Assembly (NCBI RefSeq): GCF_002854065.1
Contig: NZ_CP024147.1
DNA: 64,000 nucleotides
Reading direction: 5' to 3' (one strand)
Source: Escherichia coli
GTDB lineage: Bacteria; Pseudomonadota; Gammaproteobacteria; Enterobacterales; Enterobacteriaceae
Below are positions 5,394-16,954 of the stretch, piece after piece (within the stretch, counting starts at the first letter, position 1; every line of letters begins with the position of its first letter). A program made the position numbers and the translations under genes. The notes beneath the pieces are model-generated. The model was not told the DNA's origin. It worked only from the letters and a program-made list of their open reading frames with translations, and did no database searches.

Positions 5394-5747
5394 ATGATGT
5401 CGCTTACTTCCCTACAACTCTTTAAGAATCTGTCTGATGAAACACGTCTGGGTATTGTTCTCATACTCAGAACTATGGGGGAGTTGTGCGTATGTGATCT
5501 TTGCACTGCACTTGATCAATCACAGCCTAAGATCTCCCGGCATCTGGCTATGTTGCGAGAAAGTGGGATTTTGCTTGATAGTAAACACGGTAAATGGGTT
5601 CATTACCGGTTATCCCCACACATTCCTTCATGGGCTGCACAGATTATTGAGCAGGCCTGGTTAAGCCAACAGGACGATCTTCAGGCCATCGCCCGTAAAC
5701 TGGCTTCAGTCAACTGCACTAACAGCAGTAAGGCTATTTGTATTTAA
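5394..5747 (+). CDS. arsR: ArsR arsenite-responsive repressor (R773 type)
   Basis: The 117-aa protein has the ELCVCDLC As(III) site and the LDQSQPKISRHLAMLRESGIL HTH. It is the first gene of arsRDABC. Confidence 0.95.
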   Translation: MMSLTSLQLFKNLSDETRLGIVLILRTMGELCVCDLCTALDQSQPKISRHLAMLRESGILLDSKHGKWVHYRLSPHIPSWAAQIIEQAWLSQQDDLQAIARKLASVNCTNSSKAICI

Positions 5748-5793
5748 AAATTTGCCTGAATATATATGATTTCCCACATATGAGGTATTGAGA

Positions 5794-6156
5794 ATGAAAA
5801 CGCTAGCGGTATTCGACCCGGCAATGTGTTGTAGCACCGGTGTCTGCGGTACTGATGTCGATCAGGCTCTGGTTGATTTTTCCGCGGATGTGCAATGGCT
5901 GAAACAACGAGGTGTTCAGGTAGATCGTTTCAATCTGGCACAGCAACCGATGAGCTTTGTCCAGAACGAGAAAGTTAAAGCATTTATTGAGGCTTCTGGT
6001 GCGGAAGGGCTGCCATTACTGTTACTGGATGGCGAAACAGTGATGGCCGGGCGTTATCCGAAACGGGCTGAACTTGCACGGTGGTTTGGAATTCCGCTGG
6101 AGAAAGTAGGATTAGCGCCTTCAGGCTGCTGCGGTGGTAATACTTCTTGTTGTTAA
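5794..6156 (+). CDS. arsD: ArsD arsenic metallochaperone
   Basis: MKTLAVFDPAMCCSTGVCG carries Cys12/13/18, and the C-terminal tail is GCCGGNTSCC. The protein is 120 aa. GAGG lies 8 nt before the ATG at 5794; the track start at 5788 is a TTG. Confidence 0.93.
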   Translation: MKTLAVFDPAMCCSTGVCGTDVDQALVDFSADVQWLKQRGVQVDRFNLAQQPMSFVQNEKVKAFIEASGAEGLPLLLLDGETVMAGRYPKRAELARWFGIPLEKVGLAPSGCCGGNTSCC

Positions 6157-6173
6157 GTATGTCAGGAGGACAT

Positions 6174-7925
6174 ATGAAATTCTTACAGAACATCCCCCCT
6201 TATCTGTTTTTTACTGGTAAAGGAGGCGTTGGTAAAACCTCTATTTCCTGCGCCACGGCGATCCGTCTGGCAGAACAGGGTAAACGAGTGCTGCTGGTCA
6301 GTACCGATCCGGCCTCAAACGTAGGCCAGGTCTTTGGCCAGGTTATTGGCAATACTATTCAGCCAATAGCCACTGTTCCTGGATTGTCGGCACTTGAGAT
6401 TGATCCTCAGGCCGCTGCGCAACAGTACCGGGCCAGAATCGTTGACCCTATTAAAGGTGTCCTGCCTGATGACGTCGTTAGCAGCATCAACGAACAACTG
6501 TCTGGTGCATGCACAACAGAGATTGCGGCTTTTGATGAGTTTACCGGATTACTGACAGACGCCTCTTTGCTGACCCAGTTTGACCATATCATCTTTGATA
6601 CCGCGCCAACCGGCCATACTATTCGCCTTCTCCAGTTGCCAGGCGCCTGGAGCAGCTTTATTGACAGCAATCCCGAGGGCGCATCCTGCCTCGGCCCGAT
6701 GGCGGGGCTGGAAAAACAGCGTGAACAGTATGCCCATGCCGTTGAAGCACTGTCCGACCCAGCGCGTACCCGCCTGGTTTTAGTTGCCAGACTGCAAAAA
6801 TCCACCCTGCAAGAAGTCGCCCGAACTCATTTAGAACTCGCCGCAATTGGCCTTAAAAATCAGTACTTGGTCATTAATGGCGTTCTGCCCAAAACTGAAG
6901 CGGCAAACGATACACTGGCTGCGGCTATATGGGACCGTGAACAGGAGGCGCTGGCCAATCTTCCTTCTGACCTTTCCGGTCTGCCAACTGACACGTTATT
7001 CCTCCAACCACTCAATATGGTCGGCGTGGCTGCATTAAGTGGGCTTCTCTCCTCTCAGCCTGAGGCAGCATCATCTTCTGAAGAATACATTCAGCAACGA
7101 CCTGAAATTCCGTCGCTCTCAGCGTTAGTCGATGATATTGCCCGTAACGAACATGGTCTGATAATGCTAATGGGCAAAGGCGGTGTGGGGAAAACCACGA
7201 TGGCGGCAGCCATTGCCGTCAGACTGGCCGAAATGGGATTTGATGTCCATCTGACCACCTCAGATCCAGCAGCACACCTCAGCACAACCCTGAACGGTAG
7301 CCTTAACAATCTGCAGGTCAGTAGAATCGATCCTCACGAGGAAACAGAACGCTATCGTCAGCATGTTCTTGATACCAAGGGTGGAGAACTGGATGAAGCG
7401 GGTAAACGCCTGCTGGAAGAAGATTTACGCTCTCCTTGTACCGAAGAGATTGCGGTCTTCCAGGCCTTTTCACGGGTGATTCGTGAAGCGGGTAAGCGCT
7501 TCGTGGTCATGGATACGGCACCCACCGGGCATACCCTACTGCTGCTGGATGCCACCGGGGCGTATCACCGCGAAATTGCTAAGAAAATGGGCGATAAAGG
7601 CCATTTCACCACGCCAATGATGCAGCTTCAGGACCCGGAGCGAACCAAAGTGTTACTGGTCACGCTGCCGGAAACCACGCCCGTGCTTGAGGCGGCAAAT
7701 TTGCAGGCCGACCTTGAACGCGCAGGGATTCATCCCTGGGGCTGGATTATCAATAACAGCCTTTCCATTGCGGATACCCGTTCGCCGCTGCTTCGTCTGC
7801 GGGCGCAACAGGAACTTCCGCAGATCGAGAGTGTTAAACTCCAGCATGCCAGTCGCGTAGCTCTTGTTCCTGTACTGGCGTCAGAACCGACCGGCATCGA
7901 CAAACTCAAACAACTCGCTGGTTAA
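6174..7925 (+). CDS. arsA: ArsA arsenite-stimulated pump ATPase
   Basis: The 583-aa protein has two halves, each with GKGGVGKT and DTAPTGHT. The metalloid-site cysteines are in [14 protein letters not shown] and RSPCTEE. AGGAGG precedes the ATG at 6174. Confidence 0.95.
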
Positions 7926-7972
7926 TTATTGTCATTACTCGGGGCAGCTTTGCTGCCCTTTCGGGAGGTTAT

Positions 7973-9262
7973 ATGTTACTGGCAGGAGCCATTTTTATCC
8001 TGACCATCGTGTTGGTTATCTGGCAGCCAAAGGGATTAGGCATTGGCTGGAGCGCCACGCTGGGTGCCGTACTGGCTCTGGCATCGGGTGTGATTCATAT
8101 CGCCGATATTCCGGTGGTGTGGAATATCGTCTGGAACGCCACGGCCACCTTTATTGCCGTCATTATCATCAGTCTGTTGCTGGATGAGTCCGGCTTTTTT
8201 GAATGGGCTGCACTGCACGTTTCCCGCTGGGGCAATGGGCGTGGACGTCTGCTATTTACCTATATTGTTCTGCTCGGCGCGGCGGTGGCGGCATTGTTTG
8301 CCAACGATGGCGCGGCGTTAATTCTGACGCCGATCGTTATCGCCATGCTACTGGCGCTGGGATTCAGTAAAAGCACCACGCTGGCTTTCGTGATGGCCGC
8401 AGGGTTTATTGCCGATACCGCCAGCTTGCCACTTATCGTATCGAACCTGGTCAATATCGTTTCGGCTGATTTCTTCAAACTGGGATTCACGGAGTATGCG
8501 TCAGTTATGGTGCCGGTGGATATTGCCGCCATTGTCGCCACGCTGGTGATGCTGCATCTTTTTTTCCGCAAAGATATCCCGCCCACTTATGAGCTGGCGC
8601 GACTGAAAGAACCCGCAAAAGCCATCAAAGATCCTGCGACGTTCAGAACCGGCTGGGTTGTGCTCCTCCTTCTGCTGGTCGGTTTTTTTGTCCTTGAGCC
8701 GATGGGGATCCCTGTGAGTGCGATTGCGGCAGTGGGGGCGGCAATCCTGTTTGCGGTGGCCAAAAAAGGTCATGGTATTAACACCGGTAAAGTGCTGCGC
8801 GGCGCGCCCTGGCAGATCGTGATCTTCTCACTGGGGATGTATCTGGTGGTATACGGGTTGCGTAACGCCGGTCTGACGGATTATCTCTCTGACGTGCTGA
8901 ACGTACTGGCAGATAAAGGACTGTGGGCCGCGACGCTGGGGACAGGATTCCTGACTGCATTCCTCTCTTCTATCATGAACAATATGCCGACCGTACTGGT
9001 TGGCGCACTGTCGATTGATGGCAGCACCGCGACCGGCGTTATCAAAGAAGCGATGATTTATGCCAACGTCATTGGCTGCGATCTGGGGCCGAAAATCACC
9101 CCTATTGGTAGCCTGGCGACACTGCTCTGGCTGCACGTGCTTTCACAGAAGAATATGACAATCTCGTGGGGATACTACTTCCGCACCGGGATTATCATGA
9201 CCCTGCCTGTGCTGTTTGTAACGCTGGCTGCGCTGGCGCTACGTCTCTCTGTCACTTTGTAA
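7973..9262 (+). CDS. arsB: ArsB arsenite/antimonite efflux permease
   Basis: This is a 429-aa polytopic membrane protein sitting between arsA and arsC, and the sequence is recognised as ArsB. Confidence 0.95.
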
Positions 9263-9274
9263 TGAGATTCTGAT

Positions 9275-9700
9275 ATGAGCAACATCACTATTTATCACAA
9301 CCCAGCCTGCGGCACCTCGCGTAATACGCTGGAGATGATCCGCAACAGCGGTACCGAGCCGACCATTATTCTTTACCTTGAGAACCCACCTTCGAGGGAT
9401 GAATTGGTCAAACTCATTGCCGATATGGGTATTTCAGTACGAGCGCTGCTGCGTAAAAACGTTGAGCCTTACGAGCAACTGGGTCTTGCAGAAGATAAAT
9501 TTACTGACGATCAGCTCATCGACTTTATGTTGCAACACCCAATTCTGATTAACCGTCCGATCGTGGTTACGCCGCTGGGAACCAGACTGTGCCGTCCTTC
9601 TGAAGTGGTTCTGGATATCCTGCAGGATGCGCAGAAAGGGGCTTTCGCTAAGGAAGACGGTGAAAAGGTCGTTGATGAAGCAGGAAAACGGCTGAAATAA
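9275..9700 (+). CDS. arsC: ArsC glutaredoxin-type arsenate reductase (full length, copy 1)
   Basis: MSNITIYHNPACGTSRNTLEMIRNSG... carries the catalytic Cys12. The protein is 141 aa. Confidence 0.95.
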   Translation: MSNITIYHNPACGTSRNTLEMIRNSGTEPTIILYLENPPSRDELVKLIADMGISVRALLRKNVEPYEQLGLAEDKFTDDQLIDFMLQHPILINRPIVVTPLGTRLCRPSEVVLDILQDAQKGAFAKEDGEKVVDEAGKRLK

Positions 9701-9734: not shown

Positions 9735-10271
9735 TCAGAGCATCATGCCTGAATCCGATGGTAACGTGCTGTTCCCTTCGCCCAGATTTCGTTGCAGCAA
9801 CACTGTGTCAAGCCAACGACCATGCTTGAAGCCAATATTTTTCAGCGTACCAATCTCAGTAAATCCAACCTGCTGATGGACTTTCAGCGAACCTTGATTA
9901 TTGCTATCGCCGACAATAGCAATCATCTGCCGATAGCCGTGAGTTTCTGCCCAGGCAATGACGTAGCGCAGCAACGCTTTTCCTGTCCCCTGACGCTGTG
10001 CGTCCGGGTGAATATAAATCGAATCTTCGAGAGTGTGGCGGTAGGCGTAGCGTTCACGGTAACGAGTGAGATAACAATACCCGATAACCTTTTCTTCCTC
10101 TAACGCGACAACCCACGGTAGCGCCTGATTGCGGATCTTTTTCAGGCGGGTAAGCATCTCGTGGGTATCCGGAGGTTCAGTTTCAAAGCTGGCGGTACCG
10201 TGAAGAACATGATGGGCGTAGATATCGCGTATAGCGGGGATGTGCTTTTCTTCTGCGTTAACGATTTTCAT
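9735..10271 (-). CDS. arsN: GNAT N-acetyltransferase of the phosphinothricin-acetyltransferase (PAT/MddA) family; ArsN1-like by context
   Basis: IRDIYAHHVLHGTASFETEPP... and QRQGTGKALL...GYRQMIAIVGDSNNQGSLKVHQQVGF resemble PAT/YncA. The gene is adjacent to ars genes. Confidence 0.65.
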   Translation of the reverse strand: MKIVNAEEKHIPAIRDIYAHHVLHGTASFETEPPDTHEMLTRLKKIRNQALPWVVALEEEKVIGYCYLTRYRERYAYRHTLEDSIYIHPDAQRQGTGKALLRYVIAWAETHGYRQMIAIVGDSNNQGSLKVHQQVGFTEIGTLKNIGFKHGRWLDTVLLQRNLGEGNSTLPSDSGMML

Positions 10272-10435
10272 TGTTCTGTTCCCGTTGGCATCTTTTTCAA
10301 GGTTACTTGAAAATCCTGAGGAAAGGTAAATACAAAAGCTTATGACCCAATAAGCAGGCTAATCTTCAATCCCATCTTTTGTTTTCATTCATGCAGGGAG
10401 ACAAATATGTGCTTCCAGTATCCTTATTTTTTATG

Positions 10436-10479
10436 TTACCTTTTCCGTTATGTCTAAAATGACATAACGGAAAAGGTAA
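10436..10479. promoter_or_regulatory. Perfect 19+19 bp palindrome (6-bp spacer) overlapping the ribosome-binding site of the TauE-family gene; candidate operator or RBS-sequestering hairpin
   Basis: The sequence is TTACCTTTTCCGTTATGTC-taaaat-GACATAACGGAAAAGGTAA. It ends 4 nt before the ATG at 10484. Confidence 0.6.
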
Positions 10480-10483
10480 ACCC

Positions 10484-11308
10484 ATGTCCTCAGAATCAAA
10501 ACGGAACGGAAAAGGTTTTTTATCAGGCACGTTAATCGGTGCTTTAGGCGGCTTAATTGGCCTCGGTGGCGCTGAGTTCCGCCTTCCCGTCCTGATGGGT
10601 AGTTTCAAAATGCCGACGCTTGAAGCGGTTATTTTTAACAAAGCGATGAGCCTTACTGTTGTCGCTGTTGCTTTGATATTCCGCACAAAATCCATCGCCG
10701 TCGACCAGCTGTTTGCTCATCTTGATATTGTCATCAATTTGCTGGCCGGGAGCCTTATAGGTGCATGGTGGGCAGCAGGAAGAGCCATAAAAATGTCCCG
10801 TATTTGGCTGGACAGAACCATTCTGCTCCTGCTTGTTATCCTGTCATTCGTCATGTTTTCAGAAGCATTGATGCCTCTGCATGATAGCTCCGCTGGATTA
10901 TTCCAGCCCGGAATCGCGACCATTATTGCGGGTGTTATTGCGGGTGTTATTGCGGGTTTCTTCATCGGGAATGTTGCTGCTTTGCTGGGTGTTGCAGGGG
11001 GAGAGCTCCTGATACCAACTATCGTTATCCTTTTTGGGGCTGACATTAAACTGGCTGGCAGTTTGTCACTCATGATCAGTTTACCGACGATGATTGTGGG
11101 GTTCTCTCGCTACACTAATGCAGATGCTTTCCAGATCCTGAGAAAAGAGAAAAAACTTTTTGTGTGGATGGTCATCGGTTCCGTTATAGGTGCCGCTATT
11201 GGGGGCCTTATGCTCGGTATGTTCCCGGTAAGAGTACTTATGACTCTGTTAGGCGCGGTACTTCTTATTTCCGCGATCAAAACCTTTAAGCATACCCGGC
11301 AAAGATAA
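10484..11308 (+). CDS. TauE/SafE (DUF81) family anion-exporter-like membrane protein
   Basis: The 274-aa polytopic protein has internally duplicated G-rich motifs: GALGGLIGLGGAEFRLPVLMG and LLGVAGGELLIPTIV. Confidence 0.7.
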   Translation: MSSESKRNGKGFLSGTLIGALGGLIGLGGAEFRLPVLMGSFKMPTLEAVIFNKAMSLTVVAVALIFRTKSIAVDQLFAHLDIVINLLAGSLIGAWWAAGRAIKMSRIWLDRTILLLLVILSFVMFSEALMPLHDSSAGLFQPGIATIIAGVIAGVIAGFFIGNVAALLGVAGGELLIPTIVILFGADIKLAGSLSLMISLPTMIVGFSRYTNADAFQILRKEKKLFVWMVIGSVIGAAIGGLMLGMFPVRVLMTLLGAVLLISAIKTFKHTRQR

Positions 11309-11370
11309 TAGCCGTTTACGCTTTGGACTATTCCGCATTACAGAGAAAATGATTTCGAAAAGGTATCAGA

Positions 11371-11739
11371 ATGAAAAAGAATCCCCTTAAATCAAACTTA
11401 ATCTTAGTCAGACCGAGGATCTATATTAACGACAACATCTCGCTGGGGCCGGGGAAGGTTGACCTTTTAAGGGCGATTGATGGCTTTCACTCTCTTTCTG
11501 CGGCAGCTAAAGATTTGGGGATACCTTATAAAAAAGCATGGCTCTTAATTGACACTTTGAATAAAGGGATTGGTCAGCCAGTTGTAACCACTTCCACTGG
11601 TGGTAACAAGGGCGGTGGTACAGTTCTGACGCCATTGGGGCGTAGCCTGCTGATCTGGTATGACCAGGCCGAGGCCCACCTCAATGAGCAATCTCAGCAA
11701 CAGTTAATCGAACTTGAAAAGATTCTTTTTGGAAAATGA
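11371..11739 (+). CDS. ModE N-terminal-domain-like wHTH regulator lacking Mop/TOBE ligand domains
   Basis: SLSAAAKDLGIPYKKAWLLIDTLNKGIGQPVVTTSTGGNKGGGTVLTPLGRSLL parallels ModE SISQGAKDAGISYKSAWDAINEMN...ATGGKGGGGAVLTRYGQRL. The protein is only 122 aa. Confidence 0.7.
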   Translation: MKKNPLKSNLILVRPRIYINDNISLGPGKVDLLRAIDGFHSLSAAAKDLGIPYKKAWLLIDTLNKGIGQPVVTTSTGGNKGGGTVLTPLGRSLLIWYDQAEAHLNEQSQQQLIELEKILFGK

Positions 11740-11812: not shown

Positions 11813-13570
11813 TTACTTCGCCATTTCTTCCAGCAGGTCAATACCAACCGGCTCTTCGCTCTGTAGCGCTGTTAATGCAATACGCTTTGCATACTGCTCT
11901 TCCACATCAGAGATGAGAGGCAGCTCGCGGTTAGCTCTGGTCTTCAGGAAAGGTGAAGACGGCTCAGCAGCTGCCAGGCTGTTATTCACAACCCATGCCC
12001 ACGGCTCAATGCCAGCCCGACGCAGATCCTGCTGCAGGTTAGCGGCTTCCAGTACAGGTGTCGTTTCGGCAAGCGTCACGATAATCACCTTCGTCTTCTC
12101 CGGGTCCTGCAATTGCATCATTGGCGTCATCACATGGTCATGTGTTTGCCCCATCTGGCGCACCATTTCCCGGTGATAGGCTCCAGTCGCATCCAGTAGC
12201 AGAAGTGTGTGACCCGTTGGCGCGGTGTCCATAATGACAAAATGATCGTCTGCCTCTTTGATTATCCGCGAGAATGCCTGGAAGACGGCGATCTCTTCAG
12301 TACATGGTGAGCGGAGATCTTCTTCCAGCACCGCCAGCCCCTCAGCGTCTAATCCTTTGCCCTGATTCTCCAGTACAAAACGGCGATAACGCTCTGTCTC
12401 CACCTTCGGATCGATACGGCTGACCTGCAGATTTGGCAGCGAGCCATCCAGCGTGTAAGACAGATGTGCTGCCGGATCGGACGTGGTCAGATGGACTTTA
12501 TGACCGCGTTTTGCCAGCGATACCGCGACCGATGCTGCAACAGTCGTTTTGCCCACGCCGCCTTTCCCCATCGTCATTACCAGCCCTTTGCCTGTCAGAC
12601 TGAGTTCATCCACTAACGAGGAAAGTTTCGGTAAATCCAGAGCATTTAGCGTTGTATTGGAGAGAGACAGTGGCGCTTTGCTCTCTGTTAATAACTCTCG
12701 CAGGGCTTCCAGACCGACCAGATTAAATGGCTTCAGAGACAGCTGCGAGCGGGGAAGATTAACCAGATTATCAGGCATTGCCTGTAATGCTTTTTCTTCC
12801 CGAGCCAGAATACTTTGCGCCAGTGGATCATTTTCACCGGCAAACGGTGGCAGCACACCATTAATGGCAAGGTGTTGATGCTGCAAACCAATAGCAGAAA
12901 GCTCATCGTGCGTATGAGAAACCTCTTTCAGCGTTGAAGCCTGAGCTCGGGCAACCAGCACTAAGCGTGTGAGAGCTGCGTCGGACAGCGCTTTAACCGC
13001 ATCGGAGTACTGGTGCTGTTGTTTCTCAAGCCCTACCAGAGGTCCAAGGTTTGCAGCGGCATCAGGGTTCGCTTCGAGATAACCGCTCCAGGCTCCCGGC
13101 AATTCAAGCATGCGGATGGTGTGACCGGTTGGCGCGGTATCAAATACGATATGGTCATATTTTCCCCGCAGCTCATGATTGGTCAGCAGACCAGTAAACT
13201 CATCAAACGCAGCGATTTCCGTGGTGCATGAGCCGGAAAGCTGCTCTTCAATGCTGCTGACCACATCGGCTGGCATCAGCCCGCGAACAGGGTCGAGCAC
13301 ACGGTCACGATAGGCTTGCGCTGCAGCCATCGGATCAACTTCCATCGCGGCAAGATTTTCTACAGTACTGATATCTGTGATTCGGTGGCCGATAGTCTGG
13401 CTAAATACCTGGCCGACATTGGAAGCCGGATCGGTACTCACCAGAAGCGTTCTCTTACCCTGATCGGCCAGCCATACTGCAGTAGCACAGGCCAGGGATG
13501 TCTTACCCACTCCACCTTTACCAGTGAAGAAGATGAACGGGGGAATGTCTTTTAAAAATGGCATATTCAT
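11813..13570 (-). CDS. arsA: ArsA-family ATPase, second divergent copy lacking the Cys172 equivalent
   Basis: The protein has two GKGGVGKT / DTAPTGHT halves. SGSCTTE and RSPCTEE are present, but ANPDAAANLGP aligns with [11 protein letters not shown] of copy 1. GAGGAG precedes the ATG at 13570 (MNMPFLKD...). Confidence 0.9.
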   Translation of the reverse strand: MNMPFLKDIPPFIFFTGKGGVGKTSLACATAVWLADQGKRTLLVSTDPASNVGQVFSQTIGHRITDISTVENLAAMEVDPMAAAQAYRDRVLDPVRGLMPADVVSSIEEQLSGSCTTEIAAFDEFTGLLTNHELRGKYDHIVFDTAPTGHTIRMLELPGAWSGYLEANPDAAANLGPLVGLEKQQHQYSDAVKALSDAALTRLVLVARAQASTLKEVSHTHDELSAIGLQHQHLAINGVLPPFAGENDPLAQSILAREEKALQAMPDNLVNLPRSQLSLKPFNLVGLEALRELLTESKAPLSLSNTTLNALDLPKLSSLVDELSLTGKGLVMTMGKGGVGKTTVAASVAVSLAKRGHKVHLTTSDPAAHLSYTLDGSLPNLQVSRIDPKVETERYRRFVLENQGKGLDAEGLAVLEEDLRSPCTEEIAVFQAFSRIIKEADDHFVIMDTAPTGHTLLLLDATGAYHREMVRQMGQTHDHVMTPMMQLQDPEKTKVIIVTLAETTPVLEAANLQQDLRRAGIEPWAWVVNNSLAAAEPSSPFLKTRANRELPLISDVEEQYAKRIALTALQSEEPVGIDLLEEMAK

Positions 13571-13590: not shown

Positions 13591-13953
13591 TTAAGGCATA
13601 CGTGGAATGCTGCAGCAACGCGGTTGCGTACTGTCTTCACTCCAGTCCTGAGTTAGCGGAATATCTGCCCAACGGGCGATATCTTCACGAGTCGGCAGTT
13701 TGCCTGCCATCACCAGCTTGCCGTCGAGCAAGGTGACAGGGAGGGATTCCATCCCTGATGTGTTCATAAACTCTTTGATTACAGGGGTATTCAGGAACTG
13801 CTGCGGGTTTTTCGCAAGGCTGTAGCGCTGAATATCAACGCCATTCTTTTTCGCCCATTCGGCGCTGGCATTCCATTTGACGGCTTCGTCGCTCACCACA
13901 ACGCTGCTGGTTGCGCAGCAGCCTGCTGCTTCAAAGATCTCAATTTTTGACAT
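13591..13953 (-). CDS. arsD: ArsD-family metallochaperone, second divergent copy (Cys12-Cys13 kept, residue 18 is Val)
   Basis: The 120-aa protein begins MSKIEIFEAAGCCATSSVVV. Its thioredoxin-like core aligns to ArsD (LPVTLLDGKLVMAGKLPTREDIARW). The C-terminus is PRCCSIP. Confidence 0.8.
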   Translation of the reverse strand: MSKIEIFEAAGCCATSSVVVSDEAVKWNASAEWAKKNGVDIQRYSLAKNPQQFLNTPVIKEFMNTSGMESLPVTLLDGKLVMAGKLPTREDIARWADIPLTQDWSEDSTQPRCCSIPRMP

Positions 13954-13958
13954 GGATT

Positions 13959-14002
13959 GTTTACCTCAGTGTTTAGTCATTTGGCTTTACACTGAGGTAA
14001 AC
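13959..14002 (-). promoter_or_regulatory. 13-bp perfect stem-loop in the sigma-arsD2 spacer whose 3' arm contains the arsD2 Shine-Dalgarno
   Basis: On the mRNA strand the sequence is GTTTACCTCAGTG-(18 nt)-CACTGAGGTAAAC, followed by AATCC-ATG. No U-run follows. Confidence 0.5.
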
Positions 14003-14028
14003 GAAGGTGGTGGGAAAAAGATGCGCGA

Positions 14029-14574
14029 TTAATTCATTTTTTTGTGGCAGCAGACAAAAGATGTGTCATCCGCCTCAATCTGGCAGAGTTCTGTCATCGT
14101 CTCTTTCAGGTGTTTTCTGGCCCGAAGTAGTCGGGATTTAAACGCTGTAAGCGTGATTCCCCATTCATCGGCCAGGGACTGCTGGGGACGCCGGTTAAGG
14201 TCGGACTCTTCAATCAACCACCGCTCATCTTCGGGTAAAGCCTGTAATGTTTCAGGCAGGCAAATATCCAGTGTTGAGATTGCATCAAGGGATGCGTCTG
14301 TTAATAGGGCATCTTCTTCCAGCTCAACAAACGCCCTGGTGGTTCGGTACTCATCAATCAGCAGATTCCTTGCTACCCGATACAACCAGGCTCGCGGATT
14401 TTCCATCTCACAAAAAATGTCTGAATGGGCTCGGGCACGCAGGAAAAGGTCTTGCAGAAGGTCTGCTGCTTTTTCGCTATCGCCTGTCTTCGATATCAGA
14501 AAGCGAGAAAATTCGCCTTCATGCTGCCGCCAGAACACGCTCATACAGCTGTTGAATGCTGTTATGTCACTCAT
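14029..14574 (-). CDS. ECF-type sigma-70 family factor with a C-terminal Cys-x10-Cys-Cys extension
   Basis: Region 2 is DLLQDLFLRA...AWLYRVARNLLIDEYR. Region 4 is LPEDERWLIEESDLNRRPQQSLADEWGITLTAFKSRLLRARKHL. The tail is LCQIEADDTSFVCCHKKMN. The likely ATG is at 14574, 8 nt after the arsH stop. Confidence 0.8.
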   Translation of the reverse strand: MSDITAFNSCMSVFWRQHEGEFSRFLISKTGDSEKAADLLQDLFLRARAHSDIFCEMENPRAWLYRVARNLLIDEYRTTRAFVELEEDALLTDASLDAISTLDICLPETLQALPEDERWLIEESDLNRRPQQSLADEWGITLTAFKSRLLRARKHLKETMTELCQIEADDTSFVCCHKKMN

Positions 14575-14582
14575 ACTAACCT

Positions 14583-15293
14583 TCAAATTTTGCTCTGATT
14601 AACCCGTCGGGAAAGTTCTTCTGCAGACTCTTTTCGTTCACTGTAGCGATCGACAAGATAGGCAGAATTTGCCCGGGTCAACAATGTAAACTTCATCAAT
14701 TCTTCCATCACATCCACGATGCGGTCGTAATATGGTGACGGTTTCATACGTCCATCGTCATCAAACTCCTGCCAGGCTTTTGCTACCGAGGACTGGTTCG
14801 GAATAGTGATCATTCTCATCCAACGACCAAGCACGCGCATCTGGTTGACTGTGTTGAATGACTGGGAACCTCCACACACTTGCATAACAGCCAGAGTTTT
14901 TCCCTGAGAAGGACGAACAGCACCTTCAGATAATGGTATCCAGTCAATTTGTGCCTTCATAATACCAGTCATCGCTCCGTGTCGTTCCGGAGAGCACCAC
15001 ACCATTCCTTCAGACCAGCGGACCAGTTCACGCAACTCCATAACTTTTGGATGTGACTCCGGTGCATCATCAGGAAGTGGAAGGCCAGATGGATTAAAAA
15101 TGCGGACTTCTGCGCCCATCGCAGTTAACAACCGACCAGCTTCCTCTGTCGCCAGTCGACTGTATGAGCGCTCACGAACTGAGCCATAAAGCATTAGTAT
15201 ACGAGGGGGGTGAGATATTGTCGGTATCCCCATTTTTTGCTCAGTTATTGCAGCATCAAATAAATCAGGAACTATATTATTTAGCTTATTCAT
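14583..15293 (-). CDS. arsH: ArsH NADPH-dependent FMN reductase / organoarsenical oxidase
   Basis: [18 protein letters not shown]...[23 protein letters not shown] is typical of ArsH. The protein is 236 aa. Confidence 0.9.
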
Positions 15294-15391: not shown

Positions 15392-15715
15392 TTATCCATT
15401 TTTGCCAGCGGGTTCCGTAACATCTGTTTTACTGTTTACACAGCACTCTTCACGTAAGAATTCGATGATAGCTTCCAGTATTTCGTATTGAGAGACGCAC
15501 ATGAGCGTTCGACTCTCCCGGTTTTGTGTGACGAGTCCTACTGATACTAAGGCTGAAATATGATGACTTAACGTTGATGAGGGAATGCCAAGCTGCTTTT
15601 GCAATTCACCTACAGGCAAACCTTGTTCTCCAGCTTTTACAAGATGTTTGAATATGAACAAACGGGTCGGGTGACCCAGCTCTTTTAGTGCTTTAGCTAC
15701 TTCTTCCAATTGCAT
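15392..15715 (-). CDS. arsR: ArsR/SmtB-family repressor, second type (C-terminal vicinal Cys pair, no CVC site)
   Basis: HPTRLFIFKHLVKAGEQGLPVGELQKQLGIPSSTLSHHISALVSVGLV is an ArsR-type wHTH. REECCVNS lies near the C-terminus. The protein is 107 aa. Confidence 0.85.
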   Translation of the reverse strand: MQLEEVAKALKELGHPTRLFIFKHLVKAGEQGLPVGELQKQLGIPSSTLSHHISALVSVGLVTQNRESRTLMCVSQYEILEAIIEFLREECCVNSKTDVTEPAGKNG

Positions 15716-15736: not shown

Positions 15737-15795
15737 ATATTTCGATAATACCAGAAATATCTTGACCAGAATTATATTTCGATTATTCTAGAAAT
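15737..15795. promoter_or_regulatory. Divergent promoter region with two tandem 22-24 bp operator-like repeats, 37 bp apart
   Basis: ATATTTCGATAATACCAGAAAT is at 15737-15758 and ATATTTCGATTATTCTAGAAAT at 15774-15795. Each has the internal dyad ATTTC-N10-GAAAT. TTGACC at 15762-15767 lies between them. Confidence 0.6.
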
Positions 15796-15820
15796 GTAGA
15801 TTTTGTCAAGAGGGTTTAGT

Positions 15821-16954
15821 ATGAATAGTTGGATTTCTATGCTGCAAGATGCCGCAGAGATGTTTTTGTTTTTGGCCGTCGAGCTATCTTTGCTGTTTAT
15901 TGTCATCAGTGCCGGTGTGAGCCTGATAAGGCAAAAGGTCCCGGACCATAAAATCCAGCAATTGTTGGGGGCGAAAAAAGGAAAAGGCTACCTGCTGGCC
16001 TCGTTGTTGGGAGCCGTTACCCCTTTCTGTAGTTGCTCAACAATTCCAATGCTACGAGGGTTGTTGTCGGCGAAAGCAGGGTTTGGTCCGACACTCACTT
16101 TTTTGTTTGTTTCACCGTTGCTTAATCCCATTATCGTGGGGTTAATGTGGGTTACCTTTGGCTGGAAAGTAACTTTGTTGTACGCGATCATCGCTGCCGG
16201 TGTCTCAGTCCTTGCCAGTATCGTATTGGATTTACTAGGATTTGAACGTCATATTGTTGATCACAAAAACTCAGCATCAAGTGGTTGCGCCACCAAATGT
16301 GATGATTCCGAAGCTTCGGTAAAAACGTCGGCGGGTTCCAGTTGTTGCAGCACTAGCTCGACTCAATTGCCTGTAAAAACGAGTTGCTGTACTTCATCAG
16401 CGAACCCCATAATTAACTTAAGGACGGTAAAGAACGAGCAGAACGTATCAACGTGTTGTTCATCAATATCATCTGAACAACCAGCTGTTAGCTGTTGCAG
16501 CAGCGAGAATCTGGGCAATGTGAATCTCACACCGAATACCACCTCTGGCCCAATAAAGTTAGCTATGAAAGATGCCTTACAGCAGTTTAAGGATGTTCTG
16601 CCTTATCTTTTGTTAGGTGTATTAATAGGTTCATTTATTTATGGCTTTATCCCTTCAGAGTGGATTGCAGCTCATGCCGGAGCAGATAATCCCTTAGCCA
16701 TACCGCTGAGTGCAGTTGTTGGTATTCCGTTGTATATACGCGCAGAGGCAGTGATACCACTTGCATCAGTGCTGATGACTAAAGGAATGGGCCTGGGGGC
16801 ATTAATGGCCTTGATAATCGGTAGTGCTGGAGCGAGTTTGACAGAAGTAATACTGCTTAAATCAATGTTCAGAATGCCTATGATAGTCGCTTTTCTGACA
16901 GTTATCTTAGGTATGGCAATTCTAATGGGTTATCTGACTCAATTCTTGTTTTAA
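15821..16954 (+). CDS. ArsP-like (UPF0718/DUF318) permease with a Ser/Cys-rich central loop
   Basis: The motif TPFCSCSTIPML lies in an early TM segment and the protein has multiple TM helices. A ~75-aa loop carries GCATKC plus four (S/T)CC(S/T) pairs. The ATG at 15821 is preceded by AGAGGG; the track start at 15803 is a TTG. Confidence 0.7.
   Translation: MNSWISMLQDAAEMFLFLAVELSLLFIVISAGVSLIRQKVPDHKIQQLLGAKKGKGYLLASLLGAVTPFCSCSTIPMLRGLLSAKAGFGPTLTFLFVSPLLNPIIVGLMWVTFGWKVTLLYAIIAAGVSVLASIVLDLLGFERHIVDHKNSASSGCATKCDDSEASVKTSAGSSCCSTSSTQLPVKTSCCTSSANPIINLRTVKNEQNVSTCCSSISSEQPAVSCCSSENLGNVNLTPNTTSGPIKLAMKDALQQFKDVLPYLLLGVLIGSFIYGFIPSEWIAAHAGADNPLAIPLSAVVGIPLYIRAEAVIPLASVLMTKGMGLGALMALIIGSAGASLTEVILLKSMFRMPMIVAFLTVILGMAILMGYLTQFLF

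Follow-up and report, generated by a model that had tools for sequence, protein, structure and literature searches.

The 64,000-nucleotide stretch of Escherichia coli contig NZ_CP024147.1 analysed here (the window) carries, within an ars island, an extracytoplasmic function (ECF) sigma factor gene between arsH and arsD2, and this sigma factor is an arsenic-linked form of a known cysteine-tailed ECF kind. The best overall explanation, which we consider probable, is that the gene product is a functional ECF sigma factor of the SigZ/CorE (ECF238-like) kind, made from an arsR2-arsH-sigma transcript, that it drives arsD2-arsA2, and that its cysteines serve as a sensor. The parts of this explanation differ in strength. 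The assignment of the promoter, with arsD2-arsA2 as its target, draws on sequence comparison and is in our judgement quite likely to be right; that the protein itself directly senses a trivalent arsenical is a tentative proposal, made by analogy with other sigma factors.

To our knowledge, the controls described for ars genes are mainly repressors (ArsR/SmtB, MarR-like). With the sigma factor, ars regulation would gain positive control and a two-step cascade, and the results offer the SigZ branch, for which we know of no function or target, a candidate function and signal, along with a promoter motif and candidate targets (arsM, arsP, arsDA). Our literature searches returned no published study of an ars-linked sigma factor, although the ECF238 neighbourhood supplement may contain a mention.

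The sigma factor, its cysteines and its family

The gene and its cysteine codons lie as follows:
14029..14574, minus strand: ECF sigma factor gene (RefSeq WP_032288330.1; 181 residues, ATG start)
14047..14085, minus strand: tail motif C164-x10-C175-C176-H177, with the His177 codon (14046-14044) falling just outside
14260..14547, minus strand: other conserved cysteines (C10 at 14547-14545, C55 at 14412-14410, C105 at 14262-14260)

The initial annotation had described a 181-residue open reading frame with sigma-70 regions 2 and 4, and this is borne out by Pfam, which finds Sigma70_r2 (residues 16-80, E 1.8e-10) and Sigma70_r4_2 (residues 105-156, E 1.7e-8) as the sole domain types (PF04542 and PF08281), and by the general NCBIfam model TIGR02937 (sigma70-ECF), which the protein passes at 60.5 against a cut-off of 42.9. 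Having sigma2 and sigma4 only, a small size and a score above the general model, it belongs to the ECF (group 4) sigma-70 factors. Its layout comprises sigma2 at about residues 16-80, sigma4 at about 98-164 and a Cys/His tail at 164-181, the translated C-terminus reading ...LCQIEADDTSFVCCHKKMN. The nearest solved structure is Mycobacterium tuberculosis SigL (E 1e-21), and the helices predicted by AlphaFold are consistent with a sigma2-linker-sigma4 arrangement.

The sigma ATG, preceded by AAGG, follows the arsH stop codon (ending at 14583) after 8 nucleotides (nt; 14582-14575), and 75 nt separate the sigma stop codon from the arsD2 start at 13953; these coordinates confirm the gene order reported at the outset. 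The flanking products are ArsH (TIGR02690, 403.6 bits) and an ArsD-family protein (PF06953, 103 bits), so that the earlier statement that neither neighbour resembles an anti-sigma factor also stands. The ratio of non-synonymous to synonymous substitution rates (dN/dS) comes to 0.13 when the gene is compared with a Klebsiella chromosomal copy and to 0.10 with a copy on a K. pneumoniae plasmid; the gene is under purifying selection and is therefore kept.

Cysteines occupy positions 10, 55, 105, 164, 175 and 176 of the protein, and position 177 is a histidine. The tail codons named by the initial annotation are exact (C164, 14085-14083; C175, 14052-14050; C176, 14049-14047), and C10, C55 and C105 are conserved non-tail cysteines absent from its account. 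A profile search of 1.84 billion representatives returned 222 clusters at E <= 1e-30, and about 65 close clusters, split from the SigZ-like clusters by a score gap, make up what we call the clade. Counts in 42 full-length clade representatives and 47 SigZ-like representatives were as follows:
C164: clade 42/42; SigZ-like 47/47
C105: clade 40/42; SigZ-like 42/47
C124: clade 37/42; not conserved in SigZ-like proteins
C55: clade 34/42; not conserved in SigZ-like proteins
C10: clade 30/31 aligned; not conserved in SigZ-like proteins
CC175/176: clade 31/42 (74%); SigZ-like 0/47
C163 (forming CC163/164 together with C164): not conserved in the clade; SigZ-like 46/47

In these alignments the near-invariant cysteines of the clade are C105 and C164, and C10, C55 and C124 are also conserved. 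The expectation that the tail cysteines would be conserved thus holds fully for C164 and only in part for the CC pair, which is found in 65 of 110 aligned clade sequences and is mostly E-S/G in the remainder. It follows from the counts that the tail motif is a signature of the clade, yet the CC pair is less well conserved than the rest of it. Within the Enterobacteria, C164, C175 and C176 are kept in 17/17 full-length homologues (49-95% identity), and in the subgroup nearest the window protein (72-95% identity) C124 is replaced by Ser or Ala. C124 and CC175/176 are never absent together; since the 11 sequences without C124 are a single clade, this complementarity carries no statistical weight. 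SigZ-like proteins additionally bear two terminal cysteines. The idea that the CC pair tracks the target gene was rejected, as arsP is preceded by both tail types.

Among NCBIfam models the best match is SigZ (TIGR02959), at 132.0 bits over residues 15-179 and profile positions 1-167 of 170, so that the two align over nearly their full length, tail included. This score lies below the SigZ equivalog cut-off (132.0 against 168.65 for TIGR02959, and 115.9 against 212 for NF007215). Bacillus subtilis SigZ has been grouped with CorE2 in ECF238, where it forms part of subgroup 9, and the members of ECF238 are described as having a short (~20 residues) Cys-rich C-terminal extension, a linker cysteine in some cases and no anti-sigma factor (PMC7826278). 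The window protein shows these properties: C164, C175 and C176 fall within its last 18 residues, past the final sigma4 helix, C105 sits at the linker/sigma4.1 border, and no anti-sigma-like family recurs beside the sigma gene, either in the window or in 80 related loci, nor is an adjacent or co-transcribed anti-sigma gene present in the window. The SigZ-like relatives also share the promoter motif of the clade (described below); they differ in carrying CC163/164 and the two terminal cysteines in place of CC175/176.

The likeness to CorE and CorE2 of Myxococcus xanthus (formerly ECF44, now ECF238), on which the initial annotation had leaned, is looser. These proteins have a Cys-rich C-terminal extension and a cysteine between sigma2 and sigma4.2, their activity is governed by ligands bound at the cysteines, no anti-sigma factor is involved, and metal-detoxification genes adjoin (PMC4937300; PMC8999054). 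Two features define CorE-like proteins, a CxC that falls between sigma2 and sigma4.2 and four near-invariant cysteines in a C-terminal domain (PMC4937300; PMC8999054). In contrast, the window protein, compared with CorE by description, has no CxC, its tail holds three cysteines and one histidine in another arrangement (C-x10-CC-H), it has extra sigma2 cysteines (C10, C55), and it is linked to arsenic genes rather than to Cu, Cd or Zn. With a single C105 and a different tail it is therefore not CorE-like in the strict sense. What survives of the analogy is SigZ as the nearest model, the ECF238 features and the lack of an anti-sigma factor; what falls is the CorE CxC, along with full SigZ membership.

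A probable promoter motif of the family and its copy before arsD2-arsA2

The neighbourhoods of the relatives tie the family to arsenic. We fetched 80 genome loci, clustered the neighbouring genes and annotated them with Pfam; the clade loci among them (33-47% identity to the window protein) come from Beta-, Gamma- and Zetaproteobacteria. The commonest neighbour in the clade is an ArsP_1 permease, almost always directly adjacent (17/41 loci), followed by Acr3 and ArsR (9 loci each), ArsC of the low-molecular-weight phosphatase type (7), and ArsA, a methyltransferase and Thioredoxin_3 (6 each). The link to arsenic genes (arsP, acr3, arsA, arsC, arsM) holds in relatives down to about 30% identity. 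Typically the order is ...arsC-acr3 (or arsA)-sigma, a gap of 50-180 nt and arsP, and the sigma gene closes an ars operon carrying arsR both in the window and in most clade loci.

Upstream of arsP in 12 distant loci we found a bipartite motif consisting of cTGCATCCTTTT, exactly 11 unconserved bases and CGTC(T)(T/C)C, with the family consensus cTGCATCCTTTT-N11-CGTCT. A T-run after the -35 and a CGTC -10 agree with ECF promoters in general. Across the 80 loci, high-scoring copies stand almost solely beside the sigma gene: the motif lies ahead of ArsP in 22/33 clade loci and ahead of arsM in about 12-14 SigZ-like loci, where the arsM assignment is based on the model NF008823 (scores of 332-371 in the six genes checked, with the cut-off at 263). 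The SigZ-like units read motif-arsM-sigma or sigma-motif-arsM, occasionally with the motif directly before the sigma gene, and the same sequence, TGC[AG]TCCTTTT-N11-CGTCT, is thus found beside the sigma gene in the clade and in SigZ-like loci alike. As an independent test, a matrix trained only on the clade arsP sites was run on the SigZ-like loci at a threshold of 18 bits; it gave 23 hits in 1.22 Mb, of which 22 shared the strand of the sigma gene and 21 were no more than 1.5 kb away from it, and simulated sequence gave 0 hits. Because of this co-occurrence with sigma genes, we infer that the motif is the cognate promoter of the sigma family. No published promoter motif for CorE2 or ECF24 was found in the literature examined.

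A few sites stand before genes of other kinds. A betaproteobacterial locus (L018, 10984-13300) has two copies of the motif, one ahead of a CDF cation-efflux gene and one ahead of the gene for a NiFe-hydrogenase small subunit, and in locus L031 the motif stands ahead of an RND adaptor gene; some clade regulons therefore reach beyond arsenic genes.

In the window, the motif falls in the spacer between the sigma gene and arsD2:
13992..14028, minus strand: predicted sigma-dependent promoter, within the 75-nt spacer
14026..14015 and 14003..13997, minus strand: -35-like GCGCATCTTTTT and -10-like CGTTTAC, separated by an 11-nt spacer
13959..14002, minus strand: RNA hairpin of 14 base pairs (-22.4 kcal/mol, z -6.9)
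13591..13953, minus strand: arsD2, predicted first gene of the sigma-dependent unit, with Cys12/13 and Cys113/114
11813..13570, minus strand: arsA2, with its ATG at 13570 per RefSeq

The initial annotation had named no targets and seen no GAAC...CGT promoter. This can now be replaced by a cognate motif, not of the GAAC type, directly before arsD2-arsA2. With a full 37-column matrix built from the distant sites, the best hit in the 64 kb, on both strands, is 14028..13992 on the minus strand; it reads TCGCGCATCTTTTTCCCACCACCTTCGTTTACCTCAG, and its first base comes directly after the sigma stop codon. The motif precedes arsD in the window, as it does in all the enterobacterial orthologues that we examined. 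It is the top hit of the whole orthologous locus, before arsD, in L083 (23.0 bits), Cedecea (16.4 bits) and Budvicia (14.4 bits), and the top hit of the Klebsiella locus is likewise before arsD. At L083 an inserted gene separates sigma from arsD, and there the motif remains with arsD. Among the orthologous loci GCATC(C/T)TTT and CGTTTAC are conserved and the spacer varies. In the window, transcription is predicted to start near 13993-13991.

Several observations weigh against this assignment. When a strict matrix of core columns, again from distant sites only, is used, the window site scores 11.9 bits, ranks fourth in the window and falls within the range of simulated sequence, so that the window alone gives it no window-wide significance. 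Its -10 reads CGTT where the relatives have CGTC, and the window arsP gene, the usual target elsewhere, is without the motif. The background for a score as high as that of the window site is about 1e-5 per position, or roughly 1e-3 for the spacer, and its support comes from its position and from the better-matching orthologous sites. In the window, no copy of the motif was found before the sigma gene, arsR2 or the arsP gene. A second-best full-matrix hit at 7769-7805 on the plus strand (14.9 bits), inside the 3' end of arsA1 and about 170 nt before arsB, was dropped, as it is lost with the core-column matrix and is probably due to chance.

The predicted promoter overlaps the hairpin in a suggestive way. 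The 5' arm (14002..13989) overlaps the -10, and the 3' arm (13972..13959) holds the arsD2 Shine-Dalgarno sequence GAGG (13967..13964). The pairing persists in Cedecea, Budvicia, L083 and Klebsiella, where the loops span 14 to 22 nt and one compensatory change and several G-U changes are seen. A start about 6-8 nt past CGTT would therefore give an RNA without the 5' arm, and read-through RNA from arsR2 would contain it. This arrangement suggests that translation of arsD2-arsA2 is tied to sigma-dependent initiation.

Proposed mechanism and the question of sensing

Our proposal runs in four steps. The sigma factor would be made from the arsR2-arsH-sigma transcript, started at a sigma-70-type promoter (15809..15782) overlapped by operator-like repeats. 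It would then direct RNA polymerase to GCGCATCTTTTT-N11-CGTTTAC (14026..13997), turning on arsD2-arsA2. The transcript so started would lack the 5' arm of the hairpin, and only such RNA would be well translated at arsD2. Finally, C105, C164 and C175/C176, perhaps with C10 and C55, may sense trivalent arsenicals, as CorE2 and OrbS sense their own ligands, so that ArsR2 and the sigma factor would both read the same signal.

The last step has precedents: in CorE and CorE2, and in OrbS from another group, a ligand that binds the C-terminal cysteines switches the sigma factor (PMC4937300; PMC9023288). The OrbS system of Burkholderia cenocepacia offers a parallel to the proposed pairing of ArsR2 with the sigma factor: its gene is under a metal-sensing repressor (Fur), and the C-terminal cysteines of the protein itself form a sensor of the same signal (PMC9023288). 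It differs in belonging to another ECF group (iron starvation) and in that its ligand, Fe(II), inhibits it. The ArsR/SmtB repressors, including SpArsR, which is selective for methylarsenite (MAs(III)), likewise regulate ars genes and detect trivalent arsenicals with two or three cysteines, and the vicinal pair of ArsR2 resembles the two-Cys ArsR type (PMC11868830); those proteins, however, leave the DNA on binding, whereas a sigma factor is a polymerase subunit exerting positive control, and the folds are unrelated. That this would be the first sigma factor to sense a metalloid directly, with trivalent arsenic, perhaps methylarsenite, binding the cysteines and switching it on, we put forward by the same analogy and regard as rather doubtful. 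If it were true, the SigZ-like branch of ECF238 would be a branch of arsenic-responsive regulators with the promoter TGC[AG]TCCTTTT-N11-CGTCT, and in the enterobacterial case that promoter would be built into a hairpin such that the arsD ribosome-binding site is exposed only in transcripts started by the sigma factor.

Evidence against sensing comes from several sides. Residue 124, a cysteine in 90% of the clade, is Ser in the window protein, and the CC pair is absent from 26-41% of the clade. In place of the CxC of CorE there is a single Cys105, in LDICLPE. The AlphaFold model (predicted local distance difference test score, pLDDT, of 84; predicted template modelling score, pTM, of 0.48) gives tail residues 172-181 a pLDDT below 50, so that neither the tail nor the way the domains are arranged is predicted with confidence. 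Moreover, ArsR2 could by itself supply the induction signal in the window.

This last point leads to the most serious competitor, a pure relay in which ArsR2 times the synthesis of the sigma factor, the sigma factor relays or amplifies the signal to arsD2-arsA2, and the role of the cysteines is structural, for instance in a zinc site. The place of the sigma gene as the last in an arsR-bearing operon suits such a relay, as do the dispensability of the CC pair in a quarter to two fifths of the clade and the lack of the motif ahead of clade sigma genes, from which it follows that they are not autoregulated. The SigZ-like cousins with the same motif tell otherwise. Fourteen loci join a SigZ-like sigma gene to arsM (L032, L034, L038, L040, L048, L050-L052, L054, L059-L061, L070, L073), in Firmicutes, Chloroflexi, Verrucomicrobia, Acidobacteria and others, and an ArsR-family gene lies within 4 kb in only 1 of them; in the other 13 the sigma factor is therefore the only linked regulator. 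Self-contained, partly autoregulated motif-arsM-sigma units of this kind, having no ArsR nearby, need some post-translational input. In addition, for a cytoplasmic sigma factor to have five to seven conserved cysteines is typical of those members of the group that act as sensors (PMC4937300; PMC9023288). On balance we think the pure relay unlikely, though it deserves to be taken seriously.

A further alternative keeps the sensor and changes its signal, to thiol or redox stress (through a disulfide) or to a soft metal (Cd, Zn, Cu) as in CorE/CorE2, with the arsenic context secondary. Characterised relatives do respond to Cu, or to Cd and Zn (PMC4937300), the motif stands before a CDF transporter or an RND adaptor in L018 and L031, and the family nearest the window permease, below its cut-off, is one of Cu/Zn efflux. 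The dominant linked genes, on the other hand, are arsenic-specific (arsM above its curated cut-off, acr3, arsA, arsD, arsC, arsH), and we hold this reading to be quite improbable. Finally, control by an anti-sigma factor encoded elsewhere, or an inactive passenger gene, is a very remote prospect: truncated or fused remnants do exist on several plasmids, but dN/dS is about 0.1, at least 1,245 plasmid records contain an intact copy, the 80 loci hold no conserved anti-sigma-like neighbour, and the group is described without anti-sigma factors (PMC7826278).

Neighbouring ars genes and distribution

Upstream of the sigma gene lie the remaining parts of the module:
14583..15293, minus strand: arsH, immediately upstream and in the same transcription unit as sigma
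15392..15715, minus strand: arsR2, ArsR/SmtB family, first gene of the arsR2-arsH-sigma unit
15737..15809, no strand assigned: divergent control region
15809..15782, minus strand: strong sigma-70-like promoter for arsR2, TTGACA-16-AATAAT
15762-15789, plus strand: sigma-70-like promoter for the permease, TTGACC-16-TATTCT
15821..16954, plus strand: ArsP_1-family permease (PF03773), elsewhere the commonest target class of the sigma clade

Two 22-nt direct repeats (15737-15758 and 15774-15795; ATATTTCGAT[AT]AT[AT]C[CT]AGAAAT) overlap the divergent promoters and, from their position, are probably ArsR2 operators. The permease has Cys-Cys pairs at 175/176, 189/190, 212/213 and 225/226 in a Ser/Thr-rich central loop, and its nearest NCBIfam model is a Cu/Zn efflux transporter family, with a score far under the cut-off.

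ArsR2, ArsD2 and ArsA2 have two-thiol sites, as opposed to the canonical three-thiol ones. ArsR2 has vicinal Cys91/92 and a distant Cys73. ArsD2 has no equivalent of Cys18, and in all the sigma-linked ArsD orthologues checked a two-residue deletion removes Cys18, with Cys12/13 and the C-terminal CC kept. In ArsA2 the equivalents of Cys113 and Cys422 are kept and that of Cys172 is Asn. In their usual roles ArsH, ArsP and ArsM all handle methylarsenite. The two-thiol sites of ArsR2, ArsD2 and ArsA2 and the family targets arsM and arsP would both suit methylarsenite, and one might speculate that the ars module is tuned to organoarsenicals. Two thiols are enough for methylarsenite and define the MAs(III)-selective SpArsR (PMC11868830).

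The position of the sigma gene ahead of arsD-arsA is constant across otherwise varied enterobacterial layouts:
Window and plasmids: arsR-arsH-sigma-arsD-arsA
Budvicia: arsR-sigma-spacer-arsD-arsA
L083: arsR-sigma-DUF6630 gene (opposite strand)-arsD
Cedecea: sigma-arsD-arsA
In Cedecea neteri (L082, 5094-6000) sigma-arsD-arsA begins right after a repeated tRNA-like block, by eye tRNA-Tyr. There is no arsR or arsH upstream there, and the sigma gene must therefore have a different promoter.

A PLSDB search with the sigma gene and spacer matched 1,645 plasmids, 1,245 of them at >=80% query coverage. About 1,200 of the carriers are Klebsiella plasmids, at ~78% identity, and Salmonella Infantis plasmids of the pESI type are also included; the gene is present in 57 of 5,426 complete E. 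coli genomes. The window matches the chromosome of E. coli CUWW06 at 100% identity, and the gene is labelled 'sigma-70 family RNA polymerase sigma factor' there. Annotations in general name it sigma-70 family, SigZ or SigL, and a paper on pESI names the sigma gene beside arsH, arsD and arsA without comment (PMC12504007). With more than 1,200 sequenced plasmids carrying the gene, its regulon is relevant to the arsenic co-selection of resistance plasmids, with a reach that is clinical and agricultural (Klebsiella plasmids, Salmonella Infantis of the pESI type, E. coli genomes). On many plasmids and metagenome contigs (P0056, P0064, P0073-P0086; H44-H47) all that is left of the sigma gene is its first ~115 nt, joined to a fragment of ArsA; the remainder of sigma, together with the promoter, arsD and the 5' end of arsA, seems to have been lost from them in one deletion.

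The island also holds a second, canonical operon, arsR-arsD-arsA-arsB-arsC (5394-9700, plus strand), followed at 9735-11739 by genes for an ArsN1-like acetyltransferase, a TauE/SafE exporter and a ModE-N-like winged-helix protein. There are therefore two ArsD/ArsA pairs in the island, ArsA1 and ArsA2 being 63% identical. Beside the ars island, at 17413-22271 on the plus strand, lies a run of large genes, one annotated as a site-specific integrase and the others as hypothetical, which suggests a mobile genomic island.

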